Under the pieces are notes generated by a model. That model saw nothing but the letters and a program-made list of their open reading frames with translations. It was not told where the DNA came from and searched no databases. Source: Mobula birostris (taxonomy: Eukaryota). From it: a DNA stretch of 64,000 nt. The position numbers and the translations under genes were made by a program. The DNA lies in assembly GCF_030028105.1 (NCBI RefSeq), contig NC_092376.1, positions 178,660,080-178,724,079 on the forward strand, in the 5' to 3' direction. This document shows, piece by piece, positions 5,145 to 59,346 of the stretch (its first letter is position 1; every line of letters starts with the position of its first letter).

Positions 5145-7535
5145 ATGGTGAATTCGCAGAACAACAACGCCATGTTACTGTTGATGCTGAATTTTATTCT
5201 CCTTTTCATACTGAGACAGGGACTGGGTCTGATTCGCTTTTCTATTCCAGAGGAATTGGAATATGGCTCTTCTGTCGGGAATATTGCTGAAAATTTAGGA
5301 CTAATCGCTCGAGAATTATCATTACGAAAATGTCGCCTAGTCTCCGGTGACGGAAGCCGGTATCTAGAGGTAAATTTAGAGACTGGGCTCCTGTTTGTGA
5401 GCGGTCGGATAGACAGAGAGCAGCTTTGTACACAGGGTCCTACTTGTAATATTGCCTTTCAGATAGTTCTAGAAACCCCCCTCGAAATGTACCGCGGGGA
5501 AGTGGAGATTCTTGATATAAATGATAATCCGCCCTCGTTCCAAGAAAACACCATTGTCTTGCAAATGTCTGAATCTGTTGCACCGGGTACCCGCTTCCCA
5601 CTAGAGAGCGCACTTGATCCAGACGTGGGATCAAACACAGTTAAAACGTATACCATCACTCCCAACGAGAACTTTGGTTTGAAGGTGCACATCAGAAAGA
5701 ATACTGTTATAAATGCAGAATTGGTGTTAGAGAAACCTTTGGACCGTGAGAAACAGGCATCTTTTGATCTTGTACTGACGGCCGTTGACGGCGGCAATCC
5801 TCCGAGATCCGGCACAACTCAAATCAAAATCAATTTGTTGGACATCAATGATAATGCGCCTATGTTCGAGAATGATGTGTATACGGCAAGACTGAAAGAA
5901 AACGCACCAACAGGAACCTTAGTGATCAAAATCAAAGCTGTCGATCTGGACCAAGGTAATAATGCCGAGTTAAAATATTCGTTCTCTAATCTTATCCCAG
6001 AGAGAGTGCGTGAATTATTCAGTCTGGACGCTGAAACTGGAGCGATCAAAGTTCGGGAACAGCTGGACTTTGAGAATGAGCAAAGTTATGAACTTGATGT
6101 CCAGGCTGTGGACAATGGCTCACCATCAATTACAGGACATGCCAAAGTGCTGATCGATTTGATTGATGTAAATGATAATGCCCCGGAGATAACAGTGACC
6201 TCCATATCTGGCAAAATCCCCGAAGATGTTGCGCCCGGAACAGTTGTAGCTCTACTGGACGTTACAGATCACGATTCAGGAGCAAACGGACTAATTCGCT
6301 CTGAAATTCCTCTGGGCCTTCCCTTTAAAATTGAGTCATCCCAGAACAGCCATTATAAAGTGACCACCACTCGTCCGTTGGATCGGGAAACCGCACCGAC
6401 CTATAAGATACCTGTCACAGCCTGGGACGCCGGGTCTCCTCCATTATCAACAAATAAAACTATCGAGATATCGGTGTCTGATGTTAATGACAACACACCA
6501 CAATTTTCCCAATCTTCCTACGCCGTCTATGTGATGGAGAACAACTCTCCAGGTGGGTCTATTTTCACACTGACTGCGATTGATTCTGATATGGACCAGA
6601 ACTGCTATATTTCTTATTCCTTTTGGGGGAATTTGCAGGATTCGCTGGTGCTCACTTACTTCAGTATTAACTCGATGAACGGTACCATTTGCGCATTGCG
6701 CTCATTTGACTATGAGAAGGTCAAAAGCTTCCAGTTCCATGTTCAAGCCCGTGACGCCGGAGTGCCCCCGCTGAGCAGCAGCGCTACAGTGAATGTCATC
6801 ATCCTGGATCAAAATGACAACGCTCCGGTAATTGTTTCACCTTCAGCACAGAGTGGGACTGCAGCGGTGGTGATCCTGCCACAGTCAGCGGGTCAGGGAT
6901 ACTTGGTCACCAAAATCATAGCAACTGATGCAGATTCTGGTCAGAACGCTCGGCTCTCTTACCAGATATTTGAAGCAACCGATCTCACTCTCTTCAGTGT
7001 GGGGCGTATTTCAGGCGAAATCCGAACAGCAAGGCGTATTTTGGACTTGGATGATACCTCGCAGAGTATAGTCGTCTTAGTGAGGGATAATGGACAGCCG
7101 AGTCTGTCAGGTACAGCCTCAATCTTTTTGTCAATTTTGGGCAATGTTACCGAGACAATCCCTGAAACTAAGGATTTTCATAGTAATCCTGGTTATGTTT
7201 CGGATATAAATCTTTATTTGCTTGTCACCTTCGGATCAACATCGGTTTCGTTCCTTCTGATCATCGTCTTCTTGGTGGTCTTAAAGTGTAAACAAGATGC
7301 TGGTATTGTTCAAGATGGCGGCTGCCCGATTTGTTGTTCCTGGCCGAGGAACTCGAGGGAAGTATATATGCAGGGAGATGCGCCAAGGGATCCCTTAAAT
7401 TGTACTGGAACTGGTCAGACTGCACCCTTTCCAGAAAGATATCATTACTCGGTATGCTTGTCACCGGAATCATCGAAGAGCGAATTTCTTTTCCTGAAAC
7501 CCTACAATCCTTCCTTTTCTCAAGGTCAACGCTAA
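5145..7535 (+). CDS. Clustered protocadherin, 796 aa (variable-exon type, apparently single-exon)
   Basis: Signal peptide. Six cadherin repeats with PEE, DRE and DxNDNxPxF motifs. EC1 Cys-X5-Cys (CTQGPTC). TM LYLLVTFGSTSVSFLLIIVFLVVL. Tail motif YSVCLSPESSKSEFLFLKP. Start context ACAATGG. Confidence 0.95.
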   Translation: MVNSQNNNAMLLLMLNFILLFILRQGLGLIRFSIPEELEYGSSVGNIAENLGLIARELSLRKCRLVSGDGSRYLEVNLETGLLFVSGRIDREQLCTQGPTCNIAFQIVLETPLEMYRGEVEILDINDNPPSFQENTIVLQMSESVAPGTRFPLESALDPDVGSNTVKTYTITPNENFGLKVHIRKNTVINAELVLEKPLDREKQASFDLVLTAVDGGNPPRSGTTQIKINLLDINDNAPMFENDVYTARLKENAPTGTLVIKIKAVDLDQGNNAELKYSFSNLIPERVRELFSLDAETGAIKVREQLDFENEQSYELDVQAVDNGSPSITGHAKVLIDLIDVNDNAPEITVTSISGKIPEDVAPGTVVALLDVTDHDSGANGLIRSEIPLGLPFKIESSQNSHYKVTTTRPLDRETAPTYKIPVTAWDAGSPPLSTNKTIEISVSDVNDNTPQFSQSSYAVYVMENNSPGGSIFTLTAIDSDMDQNCYISYSFWGNLQDSLVLTYFSINSMNGTICALRSFDYEKVKSFQFHVQARDAGVPPLSSSATVNVIILDQNDNAPVIVSPSAQSGTAAVVILPQSAGQGYLVTKIIATDADSGQNARLSYQIFEATDLTLFSVGRISGEIRTARRILDLDDTSQSIVVLVRDNGQPSLSGTASIFLSILGNVTETIPETKDFHSNPGYVSDINLYLLVTFGSTSVSFLLIIVFLVVLKCKQDAGIVQDGGCPICCSWPRNSREVYMQGDAPRDPLNCTGTGQTAPFPERYHYSVCLSPESSKSEFLFLKPYNPSFSQGQR

Positions 7536-10145
7536 TACACAAAGATGTGGTAAACGCGAGTGTTTTACAAAATTATAATATTTACTTCATTTTGCGGTAA
7601 AATGCCTTTGAAATATCAGTCATGATTTGGTTGTTCACTAGAGCATGCTGTAATAAACACGATGGTGTTATGCAGGGTAGACGATAGTCATCATTAAAAT
7701 CATCTGTTTACTAACCATGGTACCGCAAATTACCTAGCCGGCTGATCCACGCTAACCGATTCCATAACTGATCTTGTCCCTACCACCTGTACCGCTCAGC
7801 GGCGACCCACTTGAATAATTCACTTGCTGAACAGGTCTCCAAAACATTCACGGAATAGATTATCATGACAATACTCACTCCTCGAGTGATTAAGAGGTAA
7901 TTAAAAAAAAAACAACCCATTTTCTTATCCCTGCTCTTTGTTATTCATTGGAACGACTGGCAAATTTGCAGAGACTCTTCTGAATTTTTTTTGTGTCATT
8001 CGAGATTCCCCATGAAACCACAGTATTAGAAATATTAACGTTTAATTCTTGAACTGAACACTAACCGAAAACCTTACGCGAATGCAAAGATACATTGCAA
8101 GGTGCTTCCAGCTTTAATAGGAAGCGTCTTACTTCATGCTCAGTTATATATTTACCCCCAAGGCTATTTATTCTATTATACCGTGTTTTATTCTCCATAA
8201 AACCTGCCCTCCTCCGTATTCTTCATGAGCCTCCAGCAGCATTCGTACTTTTTAACATGTGCTTTATCAAGCTTTCGTTTAGACATATCTGTTATTGGAC
8301 TAAATGCGGTGTCGTGTTCCTCAGACTTTAATTGAATTTATTTTCCAAGAATTACATGTTGATTTATTAATATCTGATGATGGTTAAGATCTCTGATCTT
8401 TGGGCAAGTTATTTCATCATACGGGTTGATAATGAATACATTTTTCTCTTGATCAGACTGTTATATTATCTCAGAAACTTTATCAAACAAGCTCACTGAC
8501 TTCCTTATTCAGCAATATTCTCAAACTTCCTTGAGTTACAGTTTAGCCCGCAACATGGCATCGTTTTGTATAATTTTCTTCTATGCCTCCATGAAGTTTT
8601 CAAATATATTTCCTAATCAAATTTATAGCTTTTGTTCTTTAATTCCTTTCGGCTCGCGGCGCTTGAAGGTTGCCTTCTTTATAAACAGAATATTCTGTTA
8701 GATTAGTTCTTAATGATTTTCTTCTTTGTATCTTTTGTCAATTTCCAACAAATCCCCATTCATATTCTTAATTTTCATGTATTACAATTTTGTACTTACC
8801 GAAACAGTAGCACCATACACATTGTCCTTGTCTACACTTTGTGCTATTTTCAATTAATTCACAATGCTTGGTTATACTTTGCTATGGTTTTGTTATACTT
8901 AGATTACTTACAAATGCAACTTTCAGGATAGTTTACCTTTCATGACATTGGCATTACGATAGCTGATCTGTAATTCACCACTAAAATTAATGCCTGTTTA
9001 GGAAGAAAAGTTATAAATAGTTGTCTGCTCCCACTGTGGTAGGAAACACCTTTGCAATGATCGCATCTAAACGTCATATTTGGTTATATTTAACTGTTTT
9101 ATTTTCAAACTTTGTGGATGCATTCGAATTGGATCAGAAATTTTAACCTTAATTTTCATTAAATCATTGGCTTTAACTCTCCCAGAATTGTTTCACTTAT
9201 TTGTTCCAGAAGCATATTGAGACGTCGGTGTGGACAAAGACTGTACCGGGCTTCAGGTACACAGATGCGTTTAAATGCTAACACAGACAGATAGCGCGAA
9301 GAAGAAGGGAAGCCGTTTGGCACACTTGCCATCAATGGTTAATGCACTGGCTACCACTGTTAGGACGCGATGTCAAGTATAACTGTCTCTGGTATAACTG
9401 TACGATTCTTGTCATATGCTATCTACCTTGCAGATAAACCAAGATAATAGTGACTTAAATTTTTTTAACAAGATTCTGCAATTTTTGTCAAGCTAGGTGA
9501 GCTTACTGTGTGCAACGGTTGGAGGTTGAATATCCTAAATAGATATTTTTGCTTTCGCGTTTAGTTTTTTTTCTCTCTGCGTTCTTTTCCTTTCCGATTG
9601 TTTCTCAGTTTCATTACATTTTATTCCCCCTTGTTATCCTCTGCGGATTTAAATTAAAAACAGCATTGCTGAACAAAAATTCAACAGCAGAGGCTTCGTT
9701 TGTGGAAAGAAATATACCTAACGTTTCAGGTTCTGAGGCTGAAACTTTAACTAGTCTTCTTTCCATATGTGCTACCCGAGCTGCTGAGTTCTTGCAATAT
9801 TTTATTACCTCCTTCAACAATCCGACAGCGTGAATTTTTCATCATGCGGCTAACTTTCTCGATTACGAGCTTAAAATATTTATATCAGTTTTATACATGT
9901 GCCAATAGTTTATGTTTACATGTCAAGGTATCCAAGGAATTTTTCGCAAACAGGTGCTTAATGGTTAATCATGGAATCAAACGATCTCGAATATATGGGC
10001 GCTGACCGTTTAGAATACCAATTATTGATACTATCAAAACACTAAATTACTAATTTTAAAATATTTTCTACAAGAATAATATTAATGCAAATAATTCTGT
10101 CAATCTGTATTATAATTGCAGCACACTAAATTCCCAATGCAGACT

Positions 10146-10255
10146 AGCTTTAAGAACAGCATTCTGCAGTTATTGACAGGGCTCTTACGCCGCCACCAGC
10201 CAATAGTATTCCACTTTCAGTGGGAGATCCATTGCCCCTCCTCGCTGGTGTCAGA
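10146..10255 (+). promoter_or_regulatory. Pcdh promoter block (CSE core CGCC variant)
   Basis: AGCTTTAAGA 10146, TTATTGAC 10170, CCAAT 10200, GATCCATTGCCCCTCC 10226. Confidence 0.75.
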
Positions 10256-10403
10256 AAGGATTTTCCATTGACATTGTGGAACACCAGCTCTAAGGGACAT
10301 TATTTGTATGTAGATACATCAGTCAAAAGGATTTATTACCGATACAGCTGCCGAAACGGTCGCAGAGATATAATAAGGATAACAGACTTTCATTGCAGAG
10401 ACA

Positions 10404-12794
10404 ATGGCGAATTCGCAGAACAACAACGCCTTGATACCGTTGGTGCTGATTTTTATTCTCCTTGTTGTCGCACTGAGACAAGGTCTGGGTCTGATTCGCT
10501 ATTCTATTCCAGAGGAATTGGAATATGGCTCTCCTGTCGGGAATATTGCTGAAAATTTAGGTCTAGGCTTAAGAGAATTATCAGCACGAAAATGTCGTTT
10601 CGTCTCAGCTGACGGAAGCCGGTACTTAGAGGTAAATTTAGAGACTGGTCTCCTGTTTGTGAGCGGTCGGATAGACAGAGAACAGCTTTGTGCACAGAGC
10701 CCTACTTGCAATCTTGCCTTTCAGATAATACTAGAAAACCCTCTCGAAATGTACCGCGGGGAAGTGGAGATTCTCGATATAAATGATAATTCGCCCTCAT
10801 TCCCAGAAAACACCATCGTCTTGCAAATGGCCGAATCTGTTGCACCAGGTACCCGCTTCCCACTAGAGAGCGCACTTGATCCAGACGTGGGATCAAACAC
10901 CGTCAATACGTATATAATCAGTCCCAACGAGAACTTTGGTTTGAAGATGCACGTCAGAAAGAATACTGTTACAAATGCAGATTTGCTGTTACAGAAATCA
11001 TTGGACCGTGAACGAGAAGCAGTTATCCAACTTGTATTGACTGCTGTTGACGGCGGTAAACCTCCGAGGTCAGGGACAACTCAAATTACCATCCGTGTAC
11101 TAGACAATAACGATAATGCACCTGTGTTCGATAATGATGTATATACGGTGAAACTGGAAGAAAACTTACCTTTGGGAACATTGGTGACGAAAATCAGTGC
11201 TGTTGATCTGGACCAAGGTACTAACGGTGAGCTGAAATACTCTTTCGTTAATCTCCCAGACAGAGTGCGCGAATTATTCAGCCTGGACCCTGAAACTGGT
11301 GAGTTGAAAGTTCAGGAACGGCTAGACTTTGAGGATGAGAAAAGTTACGAACTTGATGTTCAAGCCGTGGATAATGGTTCACCAGCACTAACAGGACATT
11401 CCAAAGTTCTGATCGATTTGATTGATATGAATGATAATCCCCCGGAGATAACACTGATATCCCTGTCTGGCAAAGTCCGCGAAGATGCCCTGCCCGGGAC
11501 AGTGGTTGCGCTGTTGGACGTAACGGATCGTGATTCAGGAACAAACGGACAAGTTCACTGTGAGATTCCACTGGGACTTCCGTTTAAAATTCAGTCCTCC
11601 CAGAGGGACCATTGTAAAGTGGCCACCTCTCGTCTATTGGATCGGGAAACCAACCCGATGTATACGATACCTGTCACGGCCTGGGACTCCGGGCTTCCTC
11701 CGCTATCAACAAATCAAACAATCCAGTTACCTGTGTCTGATGTAAATGACAATATACCACAATTTTCCCAATCTTCCTATGCCGTCTATGTGATGGAGAA
11801 TAATGCTCCAGGTATTTCCATTTTCACAGTTAATGCGTTCGATCCGGATCTGGACCAGAACTCCTATATTTCTTATTCCTTCAAGGAAATTTCGCAGGAT
11901 TCACTGATACCCACACACTTCAGCATTGCCTCAATGAACGGCACAATTTACGCATTACGCTCCTTTGACTACGAGAAGGTCAAAAGCATTCGGATCTATG
12001 TTCAAGCCCGTGACGCTGGAGTGCCTCCGCTTAGCAGCAGCGCTACGGTGAATGTGATCATCCTGGATCAAAATGACAACGCTCCTATAATTGTTTCACC
12101 GTCAGCACAGAGTAGATCGGGAGGCGTGGAGGTCCTGCCCCAGTCAGCGGGTCAGGGGTACTTGGTCACCAAAATCATAGCAACTGATGCAGATTCTGGT
12201 CAGAATGCTCGGCTCTCTTACCAGATTGTTCAGGCAACCGATGTCACTCTCTTCAGTGTGGGGCGGAATTCAGGGGATATCAGAACAACGAGAACTATTT
12301 CAGAGCTGGATGATGCATCGCAGAGTATTGTCATCTTAGTGAGGGACAACGGACAGCCGAGCATGTCCACTACAACCACAATCTTCTTGTCGATTTCGGG
12401 CAATCTTACTGAGAATGTGTCTGAAAAGAGGGATTTTCATAGTAATCCTCGTTATGTTTCGGACATGAATCTTTATTTACTTGTGACCTTCGGATCAACA
12501 TCGGTTTTGTTTCTTCTGATCATCGTTTTCTTGGTTTTATTAAAGTGTAAGCAAGATGGTGGCATTGTCCGAGATTTCGGTTGCCCAATATGTTGTCCCA
12601 GACCGCGAAATTCGAAGGAAGTCTTTACTCGGTGCGATGCACCAAGAGATTCGTCAAATTGCACTGGAACTGGTCAGAGGGCATCCTTCTCTGAGAGCTA
12701 TCATTACTCGGTGTGTTTGACACCCGAATCATCCAAGAGCGAATTTCTTTTCCTGAAACCCTACAACCTAAACTTCACTCAAGGTCAGCGTTGA
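10404..12794 (+). CDS. Clustered protocadherin, 796 aa, close paralogue of 5145-7535
   Basis: Same architecture (SP, 6 EC, TM, YSVCLTPESSKSEFLFLKP tail). CAQSPTC in EC1. ACAATGG start context. Confidence 0.95.
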   Translation: MANSQNNNALIPLVLIFILLVVALRQGLGLIRYSIPEELEYGSPVGNIAENLGLGLRELSARKCRFVSADGSRYLEVNLETGLLFVSGRIDREQLCAQSPTCNLAFQIILENPLEMYRGEVEILDINDNSPSFPENTIVLQMAESVAPGTRFPLESALDPDVGSNTVNTYIISPNENFGLKMHVRKNTVTNADLLLQKSLDREREAVIQLVLTAVDGGKPPRSGTTQITIRVLDNNDNAPVFDNDVYTVKLEENLPLGTLVTKISAVDLDQGTNGELKYSFVNLPDRVRELFSLDPETGELKVQERLDFEDEKSYELDVQAVDNGSPALTGHSKVLIDLIDMNDNPPEITLISLSGKVREDALPGTVVALLDVTDRDSGTNGQVHCEIPLGLPFKIQSSQRDHCKVATSRLLDRETNPMYTIPVTAWDSGLPPLSTNQTIQLPVSDVNDNIPQFSQSSYAVYVMENNAPGISIFTVNAFDPDLDQNSYISYSFKEISQDSLIPTHFSIASMNGTIYALRSFDYEKVKSIRIYVQARDAGVPPLSSSATVNVIILDQNDNAPIIVSPSAQSRSGGVEVLPQSAGQGYLVTKIIATDADSGQNARLSYQIVQATDVTLFSVGRNSGDIRTTRTISELDDASQSIVILVRDNGQPSMSTTTTIFLSISGNLTENVSEKRDFHSNPRYVSDMNLYLLVTFGSTSVLFLLIIVFLVLLKCKQDGGIVRDFGCPICCPRPRNSKEVFTRCDAPRDSSNCTGTGQRASFSESYHYSVCLTPESSKSEFLFLKPYNLNFTQGQR

Positions 12795-14849
12795 ACCAGA
12801 AAGTTGCTATAAAACTGGAGGGTTTTTACAAAATCCTAACATTTACTTAAATTTGGGAGGTAAATATTATTGCCTTTCATTATTTGGTTGTTTATCAGAT
12901 ACACTGTACCAATAAGTTGATCCAAATATGTAACCATGGTTAACTTTGATTGCCTAGCCGACTGATTGACAAAAGGCCATAACGCATCCTGAATGGTTAA
13001 CAGTTAATGTTTGAAAATCCGTGATGATATTCAATCCACTGACTGGTAAGGGTTTGGCACTTTTTTAATATATAAAAGCTGCGCCTACTTATGAAAGAAT
13101 AATATTGAAACACTGCAGTTTAATGCTTAATTTGACAACAAGTTAGGAGCTTTTCCTTGAGGCAAAGAATCATTGTGATGTGCTTCTGACTTTCACGCGA
13201 TACGTCATATTCAGTGGTATATTTACACGAAAGCAGGTAATACTTTTAGAGCCTCCACCCCTCTATCTTGTTCATCCTTCTCCAGCAGCAAGATATTATT
13301 TATCTTACGCTTATCAAGCTTTCGCTTACACCACGCTATTTGACGGAATGTGCTGCCTTGCTCCGCAGCCTTTAACTGGAATCATTTTCCCCGAATTACT
13401 TACTGATTTATTAATACTTGATTATTTTTAAGATCCTTGATCATTGGCCATGTTATTTTATCATAGGGGTAGCTCATGCAAATATTTTCCTCTTATATAC
13501 CCTGTTGAATTATCTTAGAATCTTTATCCAATTCGTTCAGCGATATTCCGGCTTTTCTTAATTTACAATTTCACCTGAAATATGACATCGTTTTGTTTAA
13601 TTTTCTCCCATGTCGCCTCGATGTTTTCAAATGTATTTCCGAACTAAACTTCCGGCGATGCTGCTTTGCTTTTGAATTCCATTCTGCTGTAGTTGGCTCT
13701 CGGAGTCTGGGTGTCTGCATTCTTTATAAAGGGCCTATTCTGAATGATTGGTTTTCGTGATTTGCTTATTTCTGTCTTTGATTAAGTTTCCTAGAAATCG
13801 TTGTCCATGTTGTTAATTTTCATGTATTATCCTGTTCTGCTCATTCAAATAAAATGCCCTTTCGTTCATTTCTCTGTTTTGTGCCTGTTTTTTTACCCAT
13901 TTGTTAATCGTACAAGTCACCGCATTCTGCCTATGTCACATTATTTTCCTGTCACTATTAGCTAACAGGAAGCAGTAGCGTTTATTGCCCGTAATGGATT
14001 GTTGTATATTTTAAGCTGTACCGCCGAATCTAGCTGCAAGTATTTTTCACCGGCAAATCATCGGCAGTTACGTTTGCAACAGGATCTATCCTGGAATATT
14101 ATTTTCATCTTTTGCCGGTCTGTTATTTTGCACCCAATCACAACTGATCTCATCTATCTTTAGGACAGATACTCGTCTACTCTTCTACAGATCCATTTAA
14201 ACACCATACTCCGATTTTTGGCATTATCCTGCAGAGTTTCCTTATTCAAGATCTGTTGAAATTTCAAAAGAATAGAAACAAACGAACATATTAGTACCAG
14301 ACTCAATATTCTTGCCTTTACTTTCTCCTGTTTTTCAATTAGTTCAACACGATTGGTCTATGAATACATTAAATTTGGATATCCTCACTGATTCTCTTTT
14401 TGTTTCTACGTTTCTTCTTTAGGTGTTTTACAAATTTATCATTTAGCAGAGATTATCTTCCGTCACTTTAACATTTCGTCATGTGGCGTACAGTTCACTA
14501 AGTAATTTTAATGCCGGTTTAGGAACAAAAATTATAAATAATTGCCTGCTCATCCTGTGACAGGAAATCCCTGCGTGGTTACCATATCTTTTCGTTGTAT
14601 TTTGTATTCCATCACTGTTTTATTCAAACTTTGTGGATGCATTCCACTTCGATCAGATATTTTATCCCCGACTATTCTAATCAATTCAATGGCGAACACT
14701 CATCTAAATCTCCCAGAATTGCTTCAATTACTTATTCCCGAAAAACATGACGTGTCTACCAAGAACTTGGCACGAAGCTACAGGTACATAGATCCTTTGA
14801 AATGCCAGTGTGAAAACGAAAGTATTTCGCATGCTTGCTTTAATTGTCG

Positions 14850-16305: not shown

Positions 16306-16309
16306 CATA

Positions 16310-23900: not shown

Positions 23901-24582
23901 CACGTTGGGGGACGGACAGCCCGAAAATCCCTACATCCCATCTCGGAATGAACATTAAGCACAATACACCGTATACGCAATGAGTCCGCAACACAATTTC
24001 CTGTCTTCCGGATTACCTCTGATATCATAACAACGCTCCTCTTGTTCTTTTATCTTAAATACAACCAAATGCGACATATCCCTGTCTCCTCAAACGCAGT
24101 CTACCACATCAATACTGCAGTAAAATTTCTTTATACGTGCTGCATTCTTGAACGATTTTTATCCAGATTTTAGTGCTAAATAATACATTTCTTGTCGTCT
24201 ATCATAGAGGATATTAGTGCACTTGAAGTGTGATGATCGATTTTGATGAAGTATGTGTACAGAAAACCCAGAATGTTAAGGTGGATGAAAATAATTGCTT
24301 GGACATCAAGGAATGTGGTTTCCATTCGTTGGTTGCCAAGAAATACAGCAAGTATATTTCCACGTTACAGATTGGTTTATGGAGTCGATAAATTCATAAT
24401 GCTTAGAAGTAAACAGTATTTATGCGCCAACAGTTTAGTTTACATGTCAGGATAGTCAAGGAAATTTTCTCAAATAGCTGGTGTTCAGTTAATTATGGGA
24501 CCAAACGACCTATATGATGATTCTAATCGTTTAGAAACTCAAGACTACCAAAGTACTAAAGCGCTGATTTTGAATTTTGTAC

Positions 24583-25873
24583 AATACTGTACTAGATGCA
24601 GAGTGACAGTAAGATAAATCATTGGACTGTGGAGAATAGGCATCTTTCCAACTTGTATCGACGGCTGTTGACGGTGACAAGCCTTCAAGAACAAAAAATG
24701 CACCCGTGTTCGAAAAAGAGGCTGAAAGGAAACGCATTTTTGGGAACATTAGTGACCAACGCACCAAGGTATTAAATGCACTATTTGTTAATCTTGTTCC
24801 AGGGAGAGTGCGTAAGTTATTGGCCTGGTTCCTGAAACTGTGAGAACGAAATGCAGGAATAACTGGATTTTGAAGCAGAGGAATGCCACGAACTTGATAT
24901 TTAGACCGTGGAAAATGGTTCGCCAGCACTTACAGGGCATTCCAAAGTGTGAATGGATTTGATTGATGTAAAAGATAATGGTCCTGCGATAACGGTGTGC
25001 TCTCTATGTGGCAAAGTCCCCAAGCCTCTCCCGGAACAGTGATAGCTAAAATGTTCGTTACGAATCGCTATCCCGGAGCAAACGGGGAAGTTCCGAGCAC
25101 CATTTCATTGGGTCTTTCCTTTTAAATTTAGTCCTCCCTGAACAGCCATTATCAAGTGATCACCAGTCGCTTGTTGGATCGGGAAACCACTCCAATCACA
25201 GCGTGTGTGTTTGGGTCTCCACAATTAACATGTAAAATCATCCATATATTGTTGTCCGATAGCAATACAACACATCACGAATTTCCCAATCTTTCTACGA
25301 CTTCCATGTGATGAGAATCACGCTACGGGTGCATGTATTTTCGCACAGACTGCGTTTGATCCGGACCTGGGCCACATCTTTTTTTTTGTCTTCAGGGGGA
25401 ATGTGCGGGATACACCGGTGCCCATCTACATTATGATTAACTTGATAGAAGACAGCATTTGCGCACTGCGCTCCTTTGAATATCAGGAAATCAAAACCTT
25501 CCAAATCCTTATTCACGCTCGTTACGGCGATGTGCACCAGCAGAGCAGCAGCGCTACAGTGAATGCGAGCATCCTGAATCAAACTGATAACGTGCCGGAA
25601 ATAGTTTTACCTTCAGCGCAGTGTAGATCGGGAGCCGTGGAGATCCTTCCCCAGTCAGTAGGTCAGGCGTACTTGGTCACTAAAATCATGGTGACTGTTG
25701 TAAGTTCTGGTCAGAACGCTCGGCTCTCGTACCAGATGGTTCAAACAACCGATCCATAGGGTTTAATTTAGGCGAAATCAGAACAATGGGAAGAACTTTG
25801 GAGCTGGATGATTGCTACCACGCAGAGTACAATGGTCCTAGTGGGCAACGTCACCGAGAATGTTACCGAGAAA
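24583..25873 (+). pseudogene. Clustered protocadherin pseudogene (late EC2 to EC6; promoter, EC1, TM and tail deleted)
   Basis: Colinear decayed similarity to 10960-12430. Residual frame ICALRSFEYQEIKTFQ...SSSATVNASILNQTDNVPEIV...YLVTKIM...SGQNARLSYQ. Multiple indels and stops. Ends at GNVTENVTEK. Confidence 0.9.
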
Positions 25874-25875: not shown

Positions 25876-26228
25876 CTCTTGGGTCTAGAGCTTGGCTGCC
25901 GGCTGGGGCTTGGGTCTTGAGTCTTGAGCTTGGCTACCGGCTGGGGTTTTGGATCTTGAGCTTGGCTGCAGGATGGGGTCTTGGGTCTTGAGCTTGGCTG
26001 CCGGCTGGGGTCTTGGGTCTTGAGCTTGTCTACCTGATCGTCGAGGCTAGGGTTCTTGGAGCTTGGCTGCGGGATCATCGAGACTAGGGTTCTTGGAGTT
26101 TGGCTGCGGGACCGTCGAGGCTAGAGTTCTTGGATCTTGGCTGCGGGATTGTCGAAGCTAGCGTTCTTGGAGCTTGGCTGCGGGATCTTCGAGGCTTCGG
26201 TTCTTGGAGCTTGGCTGCGGGATCTTCG
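25876..26228. repeat. Compound minisatellite (32-bp unit then 37-bp unit)
   Basis: About 5x GAGCTTGGCTGCCGGCTGGGGTCTTGGGTCTT, then about 5x GAGCTTGGCTGCGGGATC.TCGAG.CTAGGGTTCTTG. Confidence 0.9.
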
Positions 26229-26994
26229 TCTTGAAATGCGGAGGCCGATAACTCGGAGGCCGGAGCTGAGAGACAGACTGGGAACTGAACATCAACATCG
26301 AGCCGGGACTTATCCTACGACAAGCCGGGACTCAACTTTATCTCCACACCAAGGTGGGACAAGTCCAGCTGTTGGGTAACGGCCGGATGGCCAGACTTAC
26401 CCAACAGAGGCAAAGACAAGACAGGTCCCCCCGCAGGCAACGGGAAGACGGCCTGACTACCCCACGGAGGCTAGGACAAGACTAGACAAGACATGACCGC
26501 CCCTCCCCCCGCGGGGCAACGGCAAAACGGCCTGACCATGATAGTATCCCACCCCCGCCGCCTTCTACGGGAGCTTCCGGGCGACTGAAGAGGTTCTCCA
26601 GGACTAAGGACAACTCTGGCGGGTGGGTGTTTGGTTTCGGCACTGGGGAATCCTGGATGGCGAGAGTTTATCTCCACTGTCTGTGTGCATGGGTCCATGG
26701 TTGGCTGGTTCGTTCTGTCACAAGGGGTGCTGGGGACGGATCCAAATGCAAGACACAGACACTGAAGTACAAGGAAAAGGACTTGACTAGAGTAAGGACG
26801 TGACAGGATTCAGGCAAGGATCAGGGACAAGAGCGCAGACTTGGGCTAGGGAAAGCGGGACCAGTACTAGGAACCATGGACTAGGAGACAAGTCTTGGAC
26901 TCCCATCCCGAGACTGGACAAGGACCCAGAACCTGTGTCTTGCCTCCTGCTCGGACCCCAGAACCAGTCAAGGACATGACTTGTCTGCCGGTAG

Positions 26995-39048: not shown

Positions 39049-39150
39049 AGCTTTAAGATTTTCTGTTGTTATTATTGACAAGAGATCTTTGTGTCGCTGT
39101 CCACCAATCAGGATCTCAAGTGCAGCTAGAGATCCATTGCTCCACCCCCA
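39049..39150 (+). promoter_or_regulatory. Pcdh promoter with CSE-like element (CGCT core)
   Basis: AGCTTTAAGA 39049, TTATTGAC 39072, GTGTCGCTGTCCACCAAT 39091-39108, GATCCATTGC 39131. Confidence 0.85.
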
Positions 39151-39344: not shown

Positions 39345-41759
39345 ATGGCGAATGTACAGGGTAAGAAAGCCTTACAGTCCCTGGGATTGCCTTTTAGTGT
39401 TATTATTTGTGCATTAAGTATGGTTTTCGGACAGATTCGCTATTCAATTCCCGAAGAAATAGAGCGGGGATCAATTATCGGTAACATTGCTGAAGATTTA
39501 GGATTAAAGGCTGGAACATTGCTCGCTCGTAGAGGACGGCTTGTCTCCGGTCGCATTAAACCATATGCGGAATTAAATTTGGAAAGTGGGGTTTTGTTTG
39601 TCAATGAGAGAACGGACAGAGAAAAACTCTGTGGATCGATGTCTACCTGTATTCTTCCTTTCCAAATTGTGATTGAAAATCCCCCAGAAATGTACCGCGG
39701 TGAATTGGAGAATGTCGATATAAATGATAATACGCCCATTTTCCCGCAACGCACCGTTGCCTTGCAGATTGCTGAAATTATTGCACCCGGCGCTCGTTTT
39801 CCACTGGAGAGCGCTCTCGATCCGGACGTGGGGACAAATGCAGTCACTGCATACCTGATCAGCCCCAATGAACACTTCAGTCTGAAAGTGGAGAACGCGG
39901 AAGAAGGCATTAAAATTGCAGAGCTGTTGTTGGAGAAACCCCTGGACCGCGAGAGGCAGGCATCTTTTCAGCTGGTGCTGACGGCCGTTGACGGAGGAAA
40001 GCCTCGGAAATCTGGGACAACTCAGGTTGCAATTACTGTGCTGGACAGCAACGATAACGCGCCGGTTTTCGATCGGAAGGTGTACAAAGCCAGCCTGCCA
40101 GAAAACACGTCCAGGGGATCCCCAGTGGTTACGGTGCACGCTTCGGATGCAGATGACGGCCTAAACGCAGAGCTAACTTACTCTTTCAGCAATCGTGCCT
40201 CAAAGGAAGTGCAGGAATTGTTCAGTTTGGATCCCCGGACGGGAGAAATTAGAGTCTTAGGAGATCTGGACTTCGAAGAGGCAAACAGCTATACAGTGGA
40301 TGTTCAGGCTGTGGACAGAGGTTCACCAGCAATTGCAGGGCATTCTAAAGTCCTAATCAGGATAACTGATGTCAATGATAACGACCCGGAAATAGAAGTA
40401 AACCTGGTGACTACAAAGGTCACAGAGACTGCGGCGCGCGGGACAGTAATCGCGATGATCAATGTACATGATCGAGATTCTGGAGTGAACGGAGAAGTAC
40501 ACTGCAAGATTCCACCACATATTCCGTTTAAGTTGCAGGCATCATCGAGCGGTCATTATAAACTAAGTACCAGTGACTCCTTAGATCGGGAAAGTACCGC
40601 ACTCTATAATATTGCTTTTTTCGCCCGGGATTCGGGATCTCCTCCTCGATCGACGAACAAAACTATCCAGATATGGGTTTCTGACGTCAATGACAACGCC
40701 CCAAGGTTTTCCCGGTTCTCTTATACAGTTTATGTGACGGAGAACAACGCTCTGGGTGCACTTATTTCCGTAGCATCTGCTGTCGATCCTGATTTGGACC
40801 AGAACTCTTACGTTTCTTACTCCTTTGTAGAGAGCCTTATCCAGGACTTACCAGTATCCAGGTATCTCAACATTAATCCTGTGAATGGTACCATTTCTGC
40901 GCTGCGCTCTTTTGATTATGAGAATATCAAAACGTTCCAGGTGTACGTTCAAGCCCGGGACGCTGGTGTACCCCCACTGAGCAGCACTGCTACGATGAAT
41001 GTAATCATCCTGGATCAAAATGACAACGCTCCGGTAATTGTTTCACCTTCAGCAGAGAGTGGATTGGCAGCTGTGGAGGTCGTGCCGCAGTCAGTGGGTC
41101 AGGGGTACTTGGTCACCAAGATCATGGCAACTGACACCGATTCTGGTCAGAACGCGCGGCTGTCCTATCAGGTGCAGAGATCCACTGATCCCGGTTTATT
41201 CAATATTGGGCAAAACTCGGGCGAAATTAGAACAGCTCGTAATATTTTGGAGTCTGATGCCACGACACAAACTCTAGTAATTTTGGTGAAGGATAATGGA
41301 CAGCCAAGCCTATCCAGCACGATTACAATCCTCCTTACAGTTACGGACAGCAACACTGAAAGAACCATTGAAAACAGCAATTTTGTAGCGAAGCCCGAAG
41401 ATTTCTCTGAACTGAATCTTTACTTAATTGTCACTTTCGGCTGCACTTCCTTTCTCTTTCTTGTCACCATCATTCTCCTGATTGGCATTAAGTGTAACAT
41501 GAGCAGAAATGTCAGCCAAGACTACAATTCACCCAGTTGTTGCTACAGCCTTGAACGTTCTAACGACAACTTTCACCTAAGACCTCAAATGAAAGAATCT
41601 TTAAATGACAATAGAACAAACTCGATGGTTTACGTACCGGAAAACCATCATTATTCTGTTTGTTTGTCTCCAGAGTCAGCGAAAAGCGATTTCCTATTTC
41701 TGAAGCCGTGCAATCCGCCAATATCTCAGGCCCGATGTCAATCTATAAATATCGGATAA
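39345..41759 (+). CDS. Clustered protocadherin, 804 aa
   Basis: SP. QIRYSIPEE mature N-terminus. CGSMSTC. 6 EC repeats. TM LYLIVTFGCTSFLFLVTIILLIGI. Tail YSVCLSPESAKSDFLFLKP. Confidence 0.93.
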   Translation: MANVQGKKALQSLGLPFSVIICALSMVFGQIRYSIPEEIERGSIIGNIAEDLGLKAGTLLARRGRLVSGRIKPYAELNLESGVLFVNERTDREKLCGSMSTCILPFQIVIENPPEMYRGELENVDINDNTPIFPQRTVALQIAEIIAPGARFPLESALDPDVGTNAVTAYLISPNEHFSLKVENAEEGIKIAELLLEKPLDRERQASFQLVLTAVDGGKPRKSGTTQVAITVLDSNDNAPVFDRKVYKASLPENTSRGSPVVTVHASDADDGLNAELTYSFSNRASKEVQELFSLDPRTGEIRVLGDLDFEEANSYTVDVQAVDRGSPAIAGHSKVLIRITDVNDNDPEIEVNLVTTKVTETAARGTVIAMINVHDRDSGVNGEVHCKIPPHIPFKLQASSSGHYKLSTSDSLDRESTALYNIAFFARDSGSPPRSTNKTIQIWVSDVNDNAPRFSRFSYTVYVTENNALGALISVASAVDPDLDQNSYVSYSFVESLIQDLPVSRYLNINPVNGTISALRSFDYENIKTFQVYVQARDAGVPPLSSTATMNVIILDQNDNAPVIVSPSAESGLAAVEVVPQSVGQGYLVTKIMATDTDSGQNARLSYQVQRSTDPGLFNIGQNSGEIRTARNILESDATTQTLVILVKDNGQPSLSSTITILLTVTDSNTERTIENSNFVAKPEDFSELNLYLIVTFGCTSFLFLVTIILLIGIKCNMSRNVSQDYNSPSCCYSLERSNDNFHLRPQMKESLNDNRTNSMVYVPENHHYSVCLSPESAKSDFLFLKPCNPPISQARCQSINIG

Positions 41760-51435: not shown

Positions 51436-52940
51436 TCCTTCTTCAACATCTTGAGCAAGGTCTGCTCCCAGAAAGCCAGTGCGGCTTCCGTGCTGAACGT
51501 GGGACTGCGGACATGATTTTTCCTGCGCGCCAACTCCAGGAAAAATGCCAGGAGCAACACAGCGACCTCTTCGTGACCTTTGTCGATCTAACCAAGGCTT
51601 TCGATACGGTCAGCAGAGAAGGTTTGTGGAAGATCATGGAGAAATTTGGCTGCCCCAGCAAGTTCATCACAATCGTCCGGCAGTTCCACGACGGTATGAT
51701 AGTGAAAGTTCTGGATGACGGCGACGAGTCGGAGGCATTCCCAGTGACAAATGGCGTCAAACAAGGCTGCGTTCTTGCCCCGACTCTGTTCAGTATGGTA
51801 TTCTCTGCCATGCTGACAGATACCTTCCGTAACTACGAAGAAGGAATCCACGTCAGGTACAGGACTGACGGCAGGTTGTTCAACCTTAGGCGCCTGCAGG
51901 CAGTTACAAAGGTGCAAGAGACTGTCATCAGAAACTTCTTGTTTGCTGATGACTGCGCACTCAACGCCAGCACAGAGCAGGAGATGCAGCGTGAAATGCA
52001 CTGCTTCTCATAAGCCTGCGACAACTTCGGTCTCACTATCAGCACCAAAAAGACCGAAGTTATGTACCAGCCTGCCCCCGGAAAGCCATACCAGGAGCCG
52101 TGCATCACGGTGAAGGGCCAGAACCTCCAGGCAGTCGACAACTTCACCTACCCGGGTAGCATACTCTCTCACGCAGTGAACATAGACGCTGAGGTCAGCA
52201 ACAGGATTGCCAAAGCCAGCGCCGCCTTTGGGAGACTCCGTGAGAACGTCTGGGAGCGGAGAGGACTCAGCCTTAACACCAAGCTGAAGGTCTACTGTGC
52301 AGTGGTCCTTATCACCCTCCTTTACGCCAGCGAGACCTGGACTGTCTACAGCAGACACACCAAACAGCTCAACCACTTTCACCTGAGCTGTCTCCGCAGA
52401 CTCCTCCACATCAGGTGGCAGGACAAAGTCTCTGACACGGAAATCCTGGAACAAGCTGGGCTCTGCAGCGTCTACACCTTCCTGCTGAAAGCCGAAGCCA
52501 GGTGGGCTGGACATGTGGTCAGAATGTCAGACAGCCGATTGCCTCAGCAGCTGCTGTACGGAGAACTGTGTCAGGGCAAGCGCTCAGTCGGGGGGCAGAA
52601 GAAACGTTATAAAGGCTGCTTCAAAGCGTCCCTCAAAGGCCTGGGTGTCGACATCAACACGTGGGAGACGCTTGCCCTCAACCGTCCAACTTGGCGCAGC
52701 AAGATCACCACAGGAGCCCGTGCAGCTGAAGTCAGTCGCATCATCGATGCGCAAGGAAAGCGTGCTGTGCGCAAGGCCCGAGCAGCATCCACTGCCACGA
52801 CAGCACCCACCCACTTGTGTCCCACATGTGGGCGAGCCTTCAGGGCCTGGATTGGCCTCATCAGTCACCTCCGGACCCACAGTCACCAATCTCCCATCAG
52901 CCATGGTCATCTTCGACTACGAAGGACGAACAACAGCAAC
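51436..52940 (+). mobile_element. RTE-clade LINE, 5'-truncated, inserted in ERV pol
   Basis: ESQCGFR, RQLQEKC, FVDLTKAFDTV, GVKQGCVLAP, LFADDCAL, C-terminal CPTCGRAF...SHLRTH zinc finger. AAC-rich tail. 14-bp TSD AGATGTAATAGGGT at 51422-51435 and 52941-52954. Confidence 0.95.
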
Positions 52941-55786
52941 AGATGTAATAGGGTGGAAAAATGCGCTACTGGTCTTCGTAAGCCACCGTGGGTTAATACT
53001 GCGCTGCGAAACGCTCATTTTCATTCACATACAGCTGGATCGGCTTGCTGTAATAGGGCAATCCTCAGTCCATTGTACTGTATCAGATGCATCCTACGTT
53101 ACTACGACTCGGAGGACAGCATCATAGATGCGGTATTCAGGTACTCAATAACGACATTAATTCGTCATTGCCAGGAAAGGTATCATCTGTCTCTTGGCAG
53201 AAGTTCTGGGAGACTGAGCAATGAGAGTCACACGCTCCGACCCTAATCGGCGGGTTCCTTTGTGCAATATATATCCCAAATATTTCGGTGCAGGCCGGCA
53301 GAGTTGGAAGTTCGACAAGGAGGTTGTATGTCCTCTGGCAGCAAAATCATTAATCAACGTCACACATTCTTCTGTACAATCAGTCGGTGTCTGTGAGGCC
53401 AGAAACAAATCAGCTGCATATTGTAAAATCATGCTGCCTCCAGGCAGTAGTAAATTTGCTAGATCATCACGAATAACGGCTGCGTGGAGAACTGGACATA
53501 ATGTGTAATCCAGCAGTAAAACTGTTCACGTGTATTGCTGTCCATTACAGTCTATGAGAAGGCAACCAGATACTGACTGTCCTGATGCAGTGGTGTAGAA
53601 ACAATAAGAAGAGTACAAATCAATCACCGTACACCAGTATCACATTCGAGTCCGGAACGTTCGGTGAAATAGGCTGGACTTCTGAGTTATAGCCCGCAGA
53701 TCCTGGATAAGCCGCCTCCCATTCGGCCTCCCGGTTTGGGAATGTATAATGTCAGCGTATTGCAAGGGCTTTGAGTTAATCGCAGAACATTTTGTCGCAA
53801 TGACGTCTCTATGAAAAGTTTAATACCCCGATGGTTTCTGGAGTTAGGCGATTTTGTTTGATGAACAGTAGTCCGGCACTTTGTTAAGAGTCACCTGAAG
53901 GGGAACTACTGACTTTCACTAATCCTACATGACTAGTATCTGGGGGGCTGCCTATGATCCCAAATCAATAAGCGTAAAAGGAAGTTTCACTTCGATTGAG
54001 GCATGGGGCAGTGATTGTTGGTCCTTCAGGAAGAGCTCCTCCTGTTTCCCTTTGAACTGAACCTCAGCTGCTATTCCCTCAGGGCCAAGATATCCCTACC
54101 CGATAAGAATATTAGCCCCCCTTACCTTCATGTTAATATGCTTGGTTACTATAATCGGCATCGGGATCTGGATTGCTGAAGGCCACAGCACAATGTGGTG
54201 TTTACAAGTTCCGATCAAATCATTCAATAATTCTCCCACAGCCAATCTCCCCAGGCTTTCCCCCAACTGTGCCAACTGTAGAGAGATGCATTATAGTGCG
54301 GAGCTCGGGTAATCTATTCTCAGGGGTTTCAAGATATAATCCTTCGGAGGTACAGTGAATTACCCATTTAGTGTTTAGAGTGAGTGGCGTCCAAGCAAAT
54401 TAAGAGGTGCCTTCTGTGCTGTAACAAGAGTTTCATCAATCCTAAATTTCCCTGCTTGTTTTTAACCGACTTGGACAGGGGTTCTATCATAGGAACTCTG
54501 GTCATCTCTGCATTCTTAATACCTTTGCTGTCGTTTGGTAATGCCACTTCAGAACGCTCAATTTAAAATAATGTGCTACCTCTGATCGGGGACAATTTAT
54601 AAACATTTGCTTTGGGAGTGTTTTTTTTTTTCTCTGCAGGGGTATCCCTGCACTAGATCACTGGAAAGATACCACTTTACTTCGCGAAACATGTTGCGAA
54701 CCTCAGATGGGATCCAGCGTTTTTGTATCAGGACATTCCCTACTGTTAGCGAGGAGCCTGGAAGAGAGTCTGAGCTAATTGTCGGCCTCTCCTCGGCTGT
54801 TGCTGTTGTTGCTGCTGCTGTTGGCGGTCACACTGCCAGGACACTGTTACAGCCATTTCTATTATTTCCATATCATCCGGAAGCTCCAAAAACGGAGGAA
54901 GTAATGTTATTGGAGGATATAGTCTGGGTCTGAGACGGTCGGAGCCGAGGGTCCTGATGCGAGCACCTCGGCACTCTGCGTAATTTGGTTTAACACTCAG
55001 AGGCTGGTGCCGATTTGCCACCTCTTCCCATTCGTTAAAGCACCACATTATACACAGTATTTTAAATTCCAATTAGGATCTCTGCACCCTGATTTTGTTT
55101 CATTTCTCAAATGCTGAAACTTTTTAGAACAAAGGATCCACCATAGAGCCAATCCACATCACTCCACCCATAGAGATCACGAGAAAAATGTTTCAGAGTA
55201 TCTGCTATCCCCCGTTTCCATCCAAATCTTATCATCGGGGGACCCCGTGAAACCAGCGGGTCACTTAGGGGTTGTTTGGTCTTCAAACTTTCGACCTTCT
55301 TTCGTGTATGCTTATTCATTGGCACCTTTACCAGAGGATCAGAGGGCCGCGATTGAAGAGATGGTTCTCCTCAGGACTCCTCAGGTCGTTGAAACGTACC
55401 GTTATTATTATCCATTTCCCTCCTCTAGCTACCGTTGAAACTATTTTTAACAACTATGCAAGATCTAATATTCTTTACAGGTAATATGTACAATCCCTTC
55501 TCCCCATTGGTTGACAAAGCACCCATCATTTGCCAAGGTCTCCTTAAGTTTAGTCAAGATTTACTCTCCCGATGCTCTCAGGCTCTCTTCTACCAATCCC
55601 ATTCTTGTTCCTTTCCTCGAACTCATGGGTCACCGGCCGGTATGTGACAGCTCCGGCACCCGCGTCCAGTATCGATCCATGTTCCTCGAGCGAGTCCCTA
55701 GGATGGACTCACCCCAGTCGAATTTTGACCTCTAGCTTTTAAGTAAGTCTCACGGATAGGTTCGGTCGCAATCGCGTATCATAAGG

Positions 55787-56663: not shown

Positions 56664-56770
56664 AGCTTTAAGAGCATCAGTTGTAATTGACGAAAAGAAC
56701 TGGTTGTGTCGCTGTCTACCAATGAGAAACACAATTTCACAGTTGGATCCATTGCCCCTCCTACGCCCAG
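56664..56770 (+). promoter_or_regulatory. Pcdh promoter with CSE-like element (CGCT core)
   Basis: AGCTTTAAGA 56664, TAATTGAC 56684, GTGTCGCTGTCTACCAAT 56706-56723, GATCCATTGCCCCTCC 56746. Confidence 0.85.
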
Positions 56771-56958
56771 AATAAAAGGACAGAGTCAACGAAAGAGACA
56801 ACCATTCAGTGCGTTTACATTATGGTGTTAAGCTGAGGCGTAAAAATCTTCTGTCTGTTTAGATTCGGTATTTATCTGCATGCGTTTCCGTCTTGTCGGA
56901 AGGTCTTGTTCAGGATTAATTGAGCAGAGGACTGAGTAAATTAATTGAATGCGCAACA

Positions 56959-59346
56959 ATGGCGTCCAAATCCATATTAAGCTTCACTGTAATTGCACAC
57001 AGTTTTATCGTGTGTGCTGCGGAGCAAATTCTAGGACAATTTCGTTATTCTATTCCCGAGGAAATGGTCGAAGGGACAATTGTTGGGAATATTGCTCAAG
57101 ATTTGGGATTGAATGTACCGCTTTTATCAGCTCGTAAATTTCTTCTCAGCGCTAATGACGGAGAACGGTACATGAAGGTTAGTTTGGACAATGGGCTTTT
57201 ATTCATTTGTGAAAGAATCGACAGGGAACGTATTTGTGGGCAAGCAGATATGTGTACTATACCTTTGGAAATAATACTGGAAAATCCATTAGAGATATAT
57301 CGCGGCGAAGTGGAGATTCTTGACGTAAATGACAATTCTCCTACATTTCGGGACACACATATTGCCTTACAAATGTCTGAAGCCATGACACCGGGGATAC
57401 GTTTTCGGCTCAACAGCGCGGAAGATGCTGATACTGGAATGAATACGGTCGCGAATTACACAATCAGTTCGAGTGACTACTTCAGTCTGAAAACACGGAG
57501 AACCGAGGAGGGTATTATAATTGCTGAGTTGCTGTTAGAGAAACCTTTGGATCGAGAGCTACAATCATCCTTTCAACTGGTGCTTACTGCTGAGGATGGT
57601 GGGAATCCCTCGAGAACCGGAACAGCTCAGATTCTCATTACTGTACTCGACTTCAATGATAATCCTCCTGTATTCGAGCATGATGTTTACAGGGGCACTA
57701 TTAATGAAGACGCACCACAAGATACCATTGTGTTAAAAGTTAAAGCAAACGATTTGGACGAAGGGCTGAATGCAGAGCTAACATATTCTTACAGCGATGT
57801 TATTACTTCGCGAAAAGTACGTGATTTGTTTTCCTTGGACCCCAAAACTGGCGAGATTCGAGTCAAAGGGCCGATAGATTTTGAAAAATCAAGCAGCTAT
57901 TCACTCCATATTCAAGCTGTTGATCACGGGTCACCTGCGATTACGGGACACTCGAAAGTGCTGATCAAGGTAACTGATGTAAATGACAACGCACCCGAGA
58001 TAAAAGTGAGGTCAACCACAAACCAAATCCCGGAAAATGCTACCCCCGGAAATTTAATTACCTTGATTGATGTTATCGATCGTGATTCTGGACAGAACGG
58101 CCAAGTGCGCTGCGAAATACCACAGGACGTCCCTTTTATGCTACAGAGATCGTCCAATCATTATAAATTAATTACAAGTGGAACGTTGGACCGTGAAACT
58201 GTGTCTGATTATAAAATACCTATTGCAGCCTGGGATTTGGGGTCACCTTCACTGTCAACAAATATAACCATCCATATCGTAGTTACAGATATAAATGATA
58301 ATGCCCCACTCTTTACTGAACTGCCCTACAACTTTTATGTGACTGAAAATAACTCTCCTGGAGCCTCTACCTTCGCAGTAACGGCGTCGGATCCTGATCT
58401 GGAGCAGAATTCCTATGTTTCTTATTCCATTCTGGACAGTTACATTCAAAACTTGCCAGTGTCCACGTGCTTGAGCATTAACTCAGTGAACGGCACCATT
58501 TACGCTCTGCGCTCTTTTGACTATGAGGAACTCAAAAGTTTTCAGTTCCATGTTCAAGCCCGTGACGCTGGAGTGCCGCCGCTGAGCAGCAGCGCTACTG
58601 TGAATGTCATCATCCTGGATCAAAATGACAACGCGCCAGTGATTGTTTCACCTTCAGTACACGGTGAGTCATCAGCCGTGGAAACCCTGCCCCGGTCAGC
58701 GGGTCAGGGGTTCTTGGTCACCAAGATAATGGCCACTGATGCAGATTCTGGTCAGAACGGACGGTTACTTTACCAAATGGTGAACGCTACTGATCCCAGT
58801 TTGTTTATCATCGGTCAAACGTCTGGTGAAATCAGAACAGCGCGCAAAATCTTGGAGGAGGATTTCAACACACAAACTTTGGTAATCTTGGTGAAAGACA
58901 ACGGGCAGCCAAGCCTATCTAGTACAGTTACCCTTCACATCACAATTTTGCAGAACAGCTCCGAAACTCTCACTAAAAGCAGTAATTTAGTGAGAAATTC
59001 AGAATATTTATCCGATTTAAATCTTTATTTATTGGGTATTTTCAGTTGCACTTCCATTGTCTTTCTTCTGATTATCATTGTGCTCATTGGGATCAAGTGT
59101 AAACAGGACAGAAATAACACCCAAGAGTATACTTCCCCCAGTTATTGTTACAAACGTGGGGATATGCAGGACACGTTTAATCGAAGATCTGCGGTGGAGG
59201 AAACATTACGCTATCCTGGTACGGACCAGATAGTCCGCATGCCAGGACTGCCTCAGTACTCGGTCTGCCTGTCTCCAGAATCAGCGAAAAGCGACTTCCT
59301 TTTCTTGAAGCCGTGCGGCCCTGCCATTTCTCAGGCTCAATGCTAA
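56959..59346 (+). CDS. Clustered protocadherin, 795 aa from the ATG at 56959
   Basis: ACAATGG start as in the paralogues (the ORF track starts upstream at a TTG). QFRYSIPEE, CGQADMC, 6 EC, TM, tail YSVCLSPESAKSDFLFLKP. Confidence 0.95.
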   Translation: MASKSILSFTVIAHSFIVCAAEQILGQFRYSIPEEMVEGTIVGNIAQDLGLNVPLLSARKFLLSANDGERYMKVSLDNGLLFICERIDRERICGQADMCTIPLEIILENPLEIYRGEVEILDVNDNSPTFRDTHIALQMSEAMTPGIRFRLNSAEDADTGMNTVANYTISSSDYFSLKTRRTEEGIIIAELLLEKPLDRELQSSFQLVLTAEDGGNPSRTGTAQILITVLDFNDNPPVFEHDVYRGTINEDAPQDTIVLKVKANDLDEGLNAELTYSYSDVITSRKVRDLFSLDPKTGEIRVKGPIDFEKSSSYSLHIQAVDHGSPAITGHSKVLIKVTDVNDNAPEIKVRSTTNQIPENATPGNLITLIDVIDRDSGQNGQVRCEIPQDVPFMLQRSSNHYKLITSGTLDRETVSDYKIPIAAWDLGSPSLSTNITIHIVVTDINDNAPLFTELPYNFYVTENNSPGASTFAVTASDPDLEQNSYVSYSILDSYIQNLPVSTCLSINSVNGTIYALRSFDYEELKSFQFHVQARDAGVPPLSSSATVNVIILDQNDNAPVIVSPSVHGESSAVETLPRSAGQGFLVTKIMATDADSGQNGRLLYQMVNATDPSLFIIGQTSGEIRTARKILEEDFNTQTLVILVKDNGQPSLSSTVTLHITILQNSSETLTKSSNLVRNSEYLSDLNLYLLGIFSCTSIVFLLIIIVLIGIKCKQDRNNTQEYTSPSYCYKRGDMQDTFNRRSAVEETLRYPGTDQIVRMPGLPQYSVCLSPESAKSDFLFLKPCGPAISQAQC

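Follow-up and report, generated by a model that had tools for sequence, protein, structure and literature searches.

Mammalian protocadherin-beta genes supply extra recognition isoforms that depend on partner proteins for tail signaling. In the elephant shark, epsilon genes reportedly lack constant exons as well (a finding credited to Yu et al. in 2008), and the text or supplement of that report may already contain an epsilon-beta comparison. The epsilon genes there presumably lie between delta and mu/nu. In the accessible part of the published account, the elephant shark has delta, epsilon, mu, and nu protocadherins, of which epsilon, mu, and nu are without bony-vertebrate orthologues; beta was not found, and constant exons were compared for alpha, gamma, delta, mu, and nu only (PMC2764143). 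The order in which the accessible sources list the cluster is delta, epsilon, mu, nu (PMC2764143, PMC4978886). Beta probably came from gamma variable exons, by one of two routes between which the accessible part of the source does not decide (PMC7811963). A literature search, which covered few subscription papers, found no paper on this cluster in rays or sharks.

The window analyzed here is a 64,000-nt stretch of the Mobula birostris genome (C8:178660080-178724079). It holds four intact open reading frames (ORFs) on the plus strand, all encoding protocadherin-epsilon proteins of 795 to 804 amino acids (aa): gene 1 (5145..7535, 796 aa), gene 2 (10404..12794, 796 aa, 78% identical to gene 1), gene 3 (39345..41759, 804 aa), and gene 4 (56959..59346, 795 aa), which is the first of four near-identical tandem copies, the other three lying outside the window. 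In each encoded protein, six cadherin repeats are followed by a membrane helix and a tail of 74 to 93 aa (about 83 aa in gene 1) that keeps the juxtamembrane motif up to FLKP. A domain search of the four proteins found cadherin, Cadherin_2, and Cadherin_C_2 domains and no match to the Cadherin_tail domain. The genes have the design of clustered protocadherins, namely, one large exon with EC1 to EC6, the membrane helix, and a short tail, arranged in a tandem same-strand array. A decayed paralogue of the gene 1/2 type (24428..25873, plus strand) retains an upstream piece and parts of the middle and later repeats at about 72% DNA identity, with frameshifts; GC-rich tandem arrays with 32-, 36/37-, and 73-base units (25907-27925) adjoin it. 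Fragments of LINE-type reverse transcriptase and an integrase-like retrotransposon stretch were recognized by eye between the genes (17962-18441, 30526-31869, 36326-38727, 47084-48485, and 51513-53246). An Rfam search gave no match.

An EC1 search returned 69 matches, all on one strand and within 2.3 Mb (177.8-180.1 Mb). We scored 66 of them, dropping two that were broken and one whose sequence piece ended before the stop. Genes 1 to 4 are part of a block of 25 open or nearly open exons plus pseudogenes that occupies 0.6 Mb (178.65-179.24 Mb); one of the 25 retained exons has a stop inside its first repeat. A delta-like exon with its constant exons comes first in the cluster, followed by a lone variable exon at 178.225 Mb and then the block. 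Behind the block are nine mu-like exons with constant exons and then 30 nu-like exons with constant exons; the delta, mu, and nu labels in the ray were assigned from position and by comparison with the published list rather than from named proteins. At least eight broken protocadherin pieces lie in or just behind the block (L009, L013, L014, L016, L017, L053, L136, and window positions 24428-25873), evidence of continuing turnover.

The nearest named database proteins of the window genes come from manta rays, stingrays, skates, and sharks, and the database search reached elephant-shark protocadherin epsilon4, epsilon5, and epsilon14 (808-820 aa; ABV59322, ABV59323, and ABV59332). In trees of the ectodomain, the four genes, the rest of the block, the shark relatives, and elephant-shark epsilon form one clade, apart from mu, nu, and delta, with a support of 100 in FastTree (100 rows), 100/100 in IQ-TREE (41 rows), and 100/100 under a mixture model (24 rows). 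The window genes are 52 to 57% identical to epsilon versus 40 to 42% to two lizard beta proteins, and, in cluster order, their block follows the delta-like gene and precedes the mu/nu-like subclusters. Thus, the four ray genes belong to the known protocadherin-epsilon subcluster, which consists of neuronal adhesion genes. The sequence-only reading had proposed a beta-like subcluster of self-contained genes; the genes do appear self-contained, but the subcluster is not new, since epsilon was already named in the elephant shark. What is possibly new is a short-tailed shark/ray subclade inside epsilon, supported at 100/100 (IQ-TREE, 41 rows) in trees whose named epsilon proteins were epsilon4, epsilon5, and epsilon14 only, none of them short-tailed.

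A phase-0 G/GTRAG donor between the membrane helix and the stop was found in 0 of 25 block exons versus 38 of 41 other cluster exons (Fisher P = 3e-15, for a rule picked after the spliced exons had been viewed and among paralogues that are not independent). Among the mu- and nu-like exons, 36 of 39 have such a donor. In spliced exons it lies 94 to 135 aa past the helix; the block genes stop at 74 to 93 aa. Three terminal constant exons were identified by PF15974 matches (C8 177.85, 179.64, and 180.17 Mb), and three constant first exons (delta-, mu-, and nu-like), each of 59 nt and each starting in phase 0. A genome-wide search with the first-exon pattern gave these three and one unrelated match with two mismatches. 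The terminal-exon profile, which recovered each held-out exon with E values of 1e-9 to 1e-17, had no match in the window or in the flanks of the block that were searched, 417 kb upstream and 50 kb downstream; the first-exon profile was insensitive, missing the held-out delta exon and giving the mu exon an E value of 0.34. By donor scan, and by exon profiles over these regions, the ray block shows neither a donor nor constant exons of its own, and its genes do not end in a phase-0 donor that could join a 59-nt constant first exon. A 176-kb intron (C8:179464950-179640915) separates the last exon of the mu-like constant region from the rest of that region, and this last exon is without the TFGK motif present in the delta- and nu-like last exons.

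Some or all of the block exons might nevertheless splice to the mu- or nu-like constant exons through weak or noncanonical donors, the unspliced form being one isoform. These constant regions do lie downstream on the same strand, and donor-like AAG/GTCA sites occur near the ends of gene 1 (AAG/GTCAAC, 7522..7530, plus strand, weak) and gene 2 (AAG/GTCAGC, 12781..12789, plus strand). Both sites are in phase 1 and would splice out of frame, because the constant first exons begin in phase 0: joining to the nu-like first exon gives an immediate stop and joining to the mu-like one a shifted frame, which speaks against the earlier suggestion that genes 1 and 2 splice optionally. Moreover, GT is found at the homologous position in only 3 of 19 paralogues. 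The AG/GT described for genes 1 and 2 is present, but the AG/GC of genes 3 and 4 is not its counterpart; it lies one base upstream, and the homologous positions read AGG/CC and AGG/CT. Six block genes have a weaker phase-0 CAG/GTA 45 aa past the helix, but its use would remove a strongly conserved motif, and sharks and rays retain the same stop position. Splicing through such sites is very unlikely. The proposal of self-contained cartilaginous-fish genes with no donor for constant exons agrees, at the level of sequence, with the count of 0 donors in 25, with the failure to find a constant exon in the regions searched, and with the shark and ray nearest relatives, and the window genes are likely to be stand-alone genes with a single coding exon.

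Single-exon database models lend this no support, because the ray mu- and nu-like exons are also modeled as unspliced. No RNA read set is listed for window positions 5000-13600. Contigs from one read set (X1, about 97% alike, its RNA origin guessed) cover 7108-7496 and 12163-12755, ending before the stops, and also cover intergenic DNA. Among the pieces listed, no assembled contig from four read sets on window positions 4000-14500 bridges a stop.

The ends of the genes align as had been claimed. Gene 1 ends CAA GGT CAA CGC TAA (stop ending at 7535), gene 2 CAA GGT CAG CGT TGA (12794), and gene 4 CAG GCT CAA TGC TAA (59346), all stopping 10 codons past FLKP; gene 3 has CAG GCC CGA TGT CAA, in which CAA replaces the shared stop, and reads six codons further through SINIG to TAA (41759). 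An extension of the gene 3 type is also present in one stingray relative (P0070). Because 18 of the 19 short-tailed paralogues in the genome stop at codon 11 past FLKP, the aligned stop is more than chance. Read-through past real donors, however, runs from 2 to 84 codons and measures just 2 or 4 codons in 10 of the 38 donor-bearing exons; alignment of the stops is therefore little proof by itself. The last six block genes have tails of 13 to 23 aa. Stops two to four codons ahead of the shared one occur in the tails of L011, L017, L018, and L020, with the old end intact behind them, and the final residues of these tails look dispensable.

Among 86 shark and ray database proteins, 58 end 10 aa past the motif (34 from rays and 24 from sharks, in 15 of 17 genera); of the others, 19 are shorter and 9 longer at this end. 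These were drawn from 120 listed matches after exclusion of 34 bony-vertebrate and chimaera rows, and they were retrieved with the C-terminal part of gene 4, a selection that favors the 10-aa ending. In pairwise comparisons, which are not independent, the dN/dS was about 0.07 for the motif before the tail versus about 0.5 for the tail, from which we conclude that the motif is under protein constraint and that the last residues are loosely held. A functional C-terminal Cys, which is found in 36 of the 58 relatives, or a PDZ-type end was considered as the cause of the aligned stop and rejected, because 19 of the 86 proteins end earlier, three intact-looking short-tailed block genes carry an additional earlier stop, and the tail dN/dS is about 0.5. 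We also considered whether the tail, S-Q-A/G-Q-R/C, arose by fusion with part of constant exon 1 (compare FSQAQR in gamma); the DW part and the spacing do not fit, and the resemblance is likely a coincidence.

Promoter-like blocks precede gene 3 (39090..39150, plus strand) and gene 4 (56705..56765, plus strand). Each has a GTCGCT element, CCAAT, and a GATCCATTG block that recurs in paralogues. With a pattern set post hoc, a promoter-like element was found ahead of 22 of the 25 block genes; a CGCT element is mentioned for elephant shark clusters in the accessible part of PMC2926608. AATAAA does lie at 7652 and 41808, as reported earlier, but carries no weight as evidence, since its frequency is at the chance level: in the block, 2 of 25 genes have it within 130 nt of the stop, as do 5 of the 30 nu-like exons, compared with 7.5% of all 130-nt intervals in the window.

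The lone variable exon at C8:178.225 Mb (L022:1440-4121) is C-type/PCDH10-like, carries a strong phase-0 donor (GAG/GTGAGT), and, among solved EC1-3 fragments, best matches mouse alpha-C2. A profile search found no recognizable constant exon in the next 417 kb, up to the block. A candidate first exon for it (L090:6382), which has an acceptor but no donor (E of about 0.5), was treated as a chance match. The lone exon may be an orphaned alpha-like exon, or its donor may be joined to the mu-like exons across the epsilon block; a donor-bearing exon at this place, with no constant exons of its own found, is possibly new. Because its donor is strong and no constant exon was found in the 417 kb before the block, we put forward tentatively, as clearly less likely than not, that the epsilon block sits inside a 1.2-Mb intron, the lone exon splicing over it to the mu-like constant exons, the first of which lies at 179.459 Mb, and the epsilon exons being donor-less variable exons of a working spliced unit. 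If true, this would be a living case of the route in which variable exons lost the ability to splice, and that route would have been reached independently in sharks and lobe-finned vertebrates. For beta, the accessible part of the source leaves the lost-splicing route undecided (PMC7811963).

The block could instead be orthologous to tetrapod beta, with a single ancient loss of constant exons. The two share their architecture and a similar juxtamembrane motif, and they are placed alike in the cluster, with a spliced unit upstream and spliced subclusters downstream. The motif, however, is also common to many spliced exons, and epsilon, mu, and nu are the subclusters described as lacking bony-vertebrate orthologues. 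In the trees, lizard and bird beta nest inside a bony-vertebrate gamma clade, with gamma-A, gamma-B, and ray-finned gamma (100/100 and 97/96), and an epsilon+beta clade, which had been named beforehand as a hypothesis by the earlier finding, was rejected under two models (AU P = 0.00074 and 2.7e-5). The beta sample comprised third-party anole annotations, gecko and snake proteins, and bird units cut from fused models, mammals entering via PDB scores alone; alpha was thinly sampled and labeled by motif. The deeper branching among epsilon, mu, nu, and the bony-vertebrate group was not resolved by the trees. With gene 1 EC1-4 as the query, mouse beta6 and beta8 scored 324 and 341 bits versus 366 to 434 for alpha and gamma chains of like length, making mammalian beta the weakest clustered match among PDB chains of that length. 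A representative-set search returned mostly fused multigene models and Fat-like proteins. The block resembles beta in its apparent lack of constant exons and falls outside the clade that holds gamma-derived tetrapod beta, and orthology with beta has a very low probability. The sequence-only reading had left the choice between convergence with beta and shared ancestry; because the epsilon+beta clade is rejected and beta lies inside the gamma clade, we read the likeness as convergent, and a sister-group relationship to beta falls away.

In 16 of 119 listed beta-like database proteins of squamates, the part beyond a donor-like position is a common C-terminal tail of about 40 aa; these proteins come from anoles, Pogona, Hemicordylus, Paroedura, and Zootoca (P0409, P0412, P0415, P0419, P0420, P0424-P0426, P0437, P0445, P0450, P0476, P0480, P0499, P0505, and P0512). 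In a blastp comparison, this tail matched the sixth cadherin repeat in a variable exon (E = 2.6e-9). In these database models it resembles a "constant" exon of lizard beta, apparently derived from a variable exon that had decayed, contrary to the rule that beta has none. Lizards may thus be an exception to the premise of single-exon tetrapod beta genes; our literature search, with few subscription papers covered, found no paper on a shared exon of lizard beta. By the same token, the ray block might use a private shared downstream exon, coding or 3' untranslated, unlike the known constant exons. A decayed cadherin piece (L136) does lie between the block and the mu-like exons, and 6 of 25 block genes have a G/GTRAG within 200 nt after the stop. 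But splicing after the stop leaves the protein unchanged, and a private coding exon needs a donor before the stop, which 0 of 25 block genes have, versus donor-like Q/E-V read-through in 58 of 110 lizard beta tails; the nine longer-tailed shark/ray database proteins also share no spliced-looking extension, though this point is weak. We regard a private exon as very unlikely.

Judging from the sequence data as a whole, we think it highly probable that the four genes are epsilon members with no in-frame donor for constant exons, likely expressed from their own promoters as single-coding-exon genes and independent of beta. On this account, truncation of an ancestral variable exon, through loss of the 3' end or a new stop upstream of the donor, would have preceded the chimaera/elasmobranch split, and the truncated exon would then have multiplied in tandem. 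A shark/ray sub-lineage would later have shortened the tail further, to 10 aa past FLKP. Transcripts would start at each gene's own promoter and contain a single coding exon. By analogy with mammalian beta, epsilon proteins may widen the cell-surface recognition code with further ectodomain specificities, and their signaling may depend on partner isoforms that carry constant tails. In the last nu-like exon (L079:368-2746), a stop precedes the donor, and the donor is still present in phase 0, 135 nt downstream of that stop; this is a recent small-scale case of the truncation proposed for epsilon.

The epsilon subcluster was named in a chimaera, and rays and sharks also possess it in a large and intact form. 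The trees directly test the proposition that isoform classes free of the constant domain arose twice among jawed vertebrates, as epsilon and as beta. Two origins suggest that such isoforms are a favored way to enlarge the neuronal recognition code. The gain is modest, because the main claim was largely implied by the 2008 description of epsilon without a bony-vertebrate orthologue; the orphan upstream donor exon and the shared lizard beta tail are more open than the main finding.

Compared with the mu/nu-like subclusters, the epsilon block shares exon design, promoter-like elements, juxtamembrane motif, strand, and cluster, but most of the former have phase-0 G/GTRAG donors, and they share three-part constant regions, neither of which was found in the block. 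With elephant-shark epsilon, the ray genes share a 100/100 clade and the position between delta-like and mu/nu-like genes, and neither epsilon14 nor the clusters that include epsilon4 and epsilon5 have a constant (PF15974) domain listed; in contrast, epsilon4, epsilon5, and epsilon14 end 26 to 32 aa past the motif, and the window genes belong to a shark/ray subclade whose members end 10 aa past it, often in Gln-x-Gln-Cys. The beta genes of tetrapods and the coelacanth are likewise described, in the accessible parts of the sources, as tandem genes without constant exons and with short tails of their own (PMC2764143, PMC4978886), but their origin is separate from that of epsilon, as the AU rejection indicates. 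In ten listed lizard beta tails, the stretch beyond the motif is 38 to 54 aa long and, in most of them, ends in a donor-like Q/E-V-R, whereas epsilon stops well before the donor position. The ray block is an orthologous instance of a known subcluster, one that may work like beta, by analogy, but is not beta.
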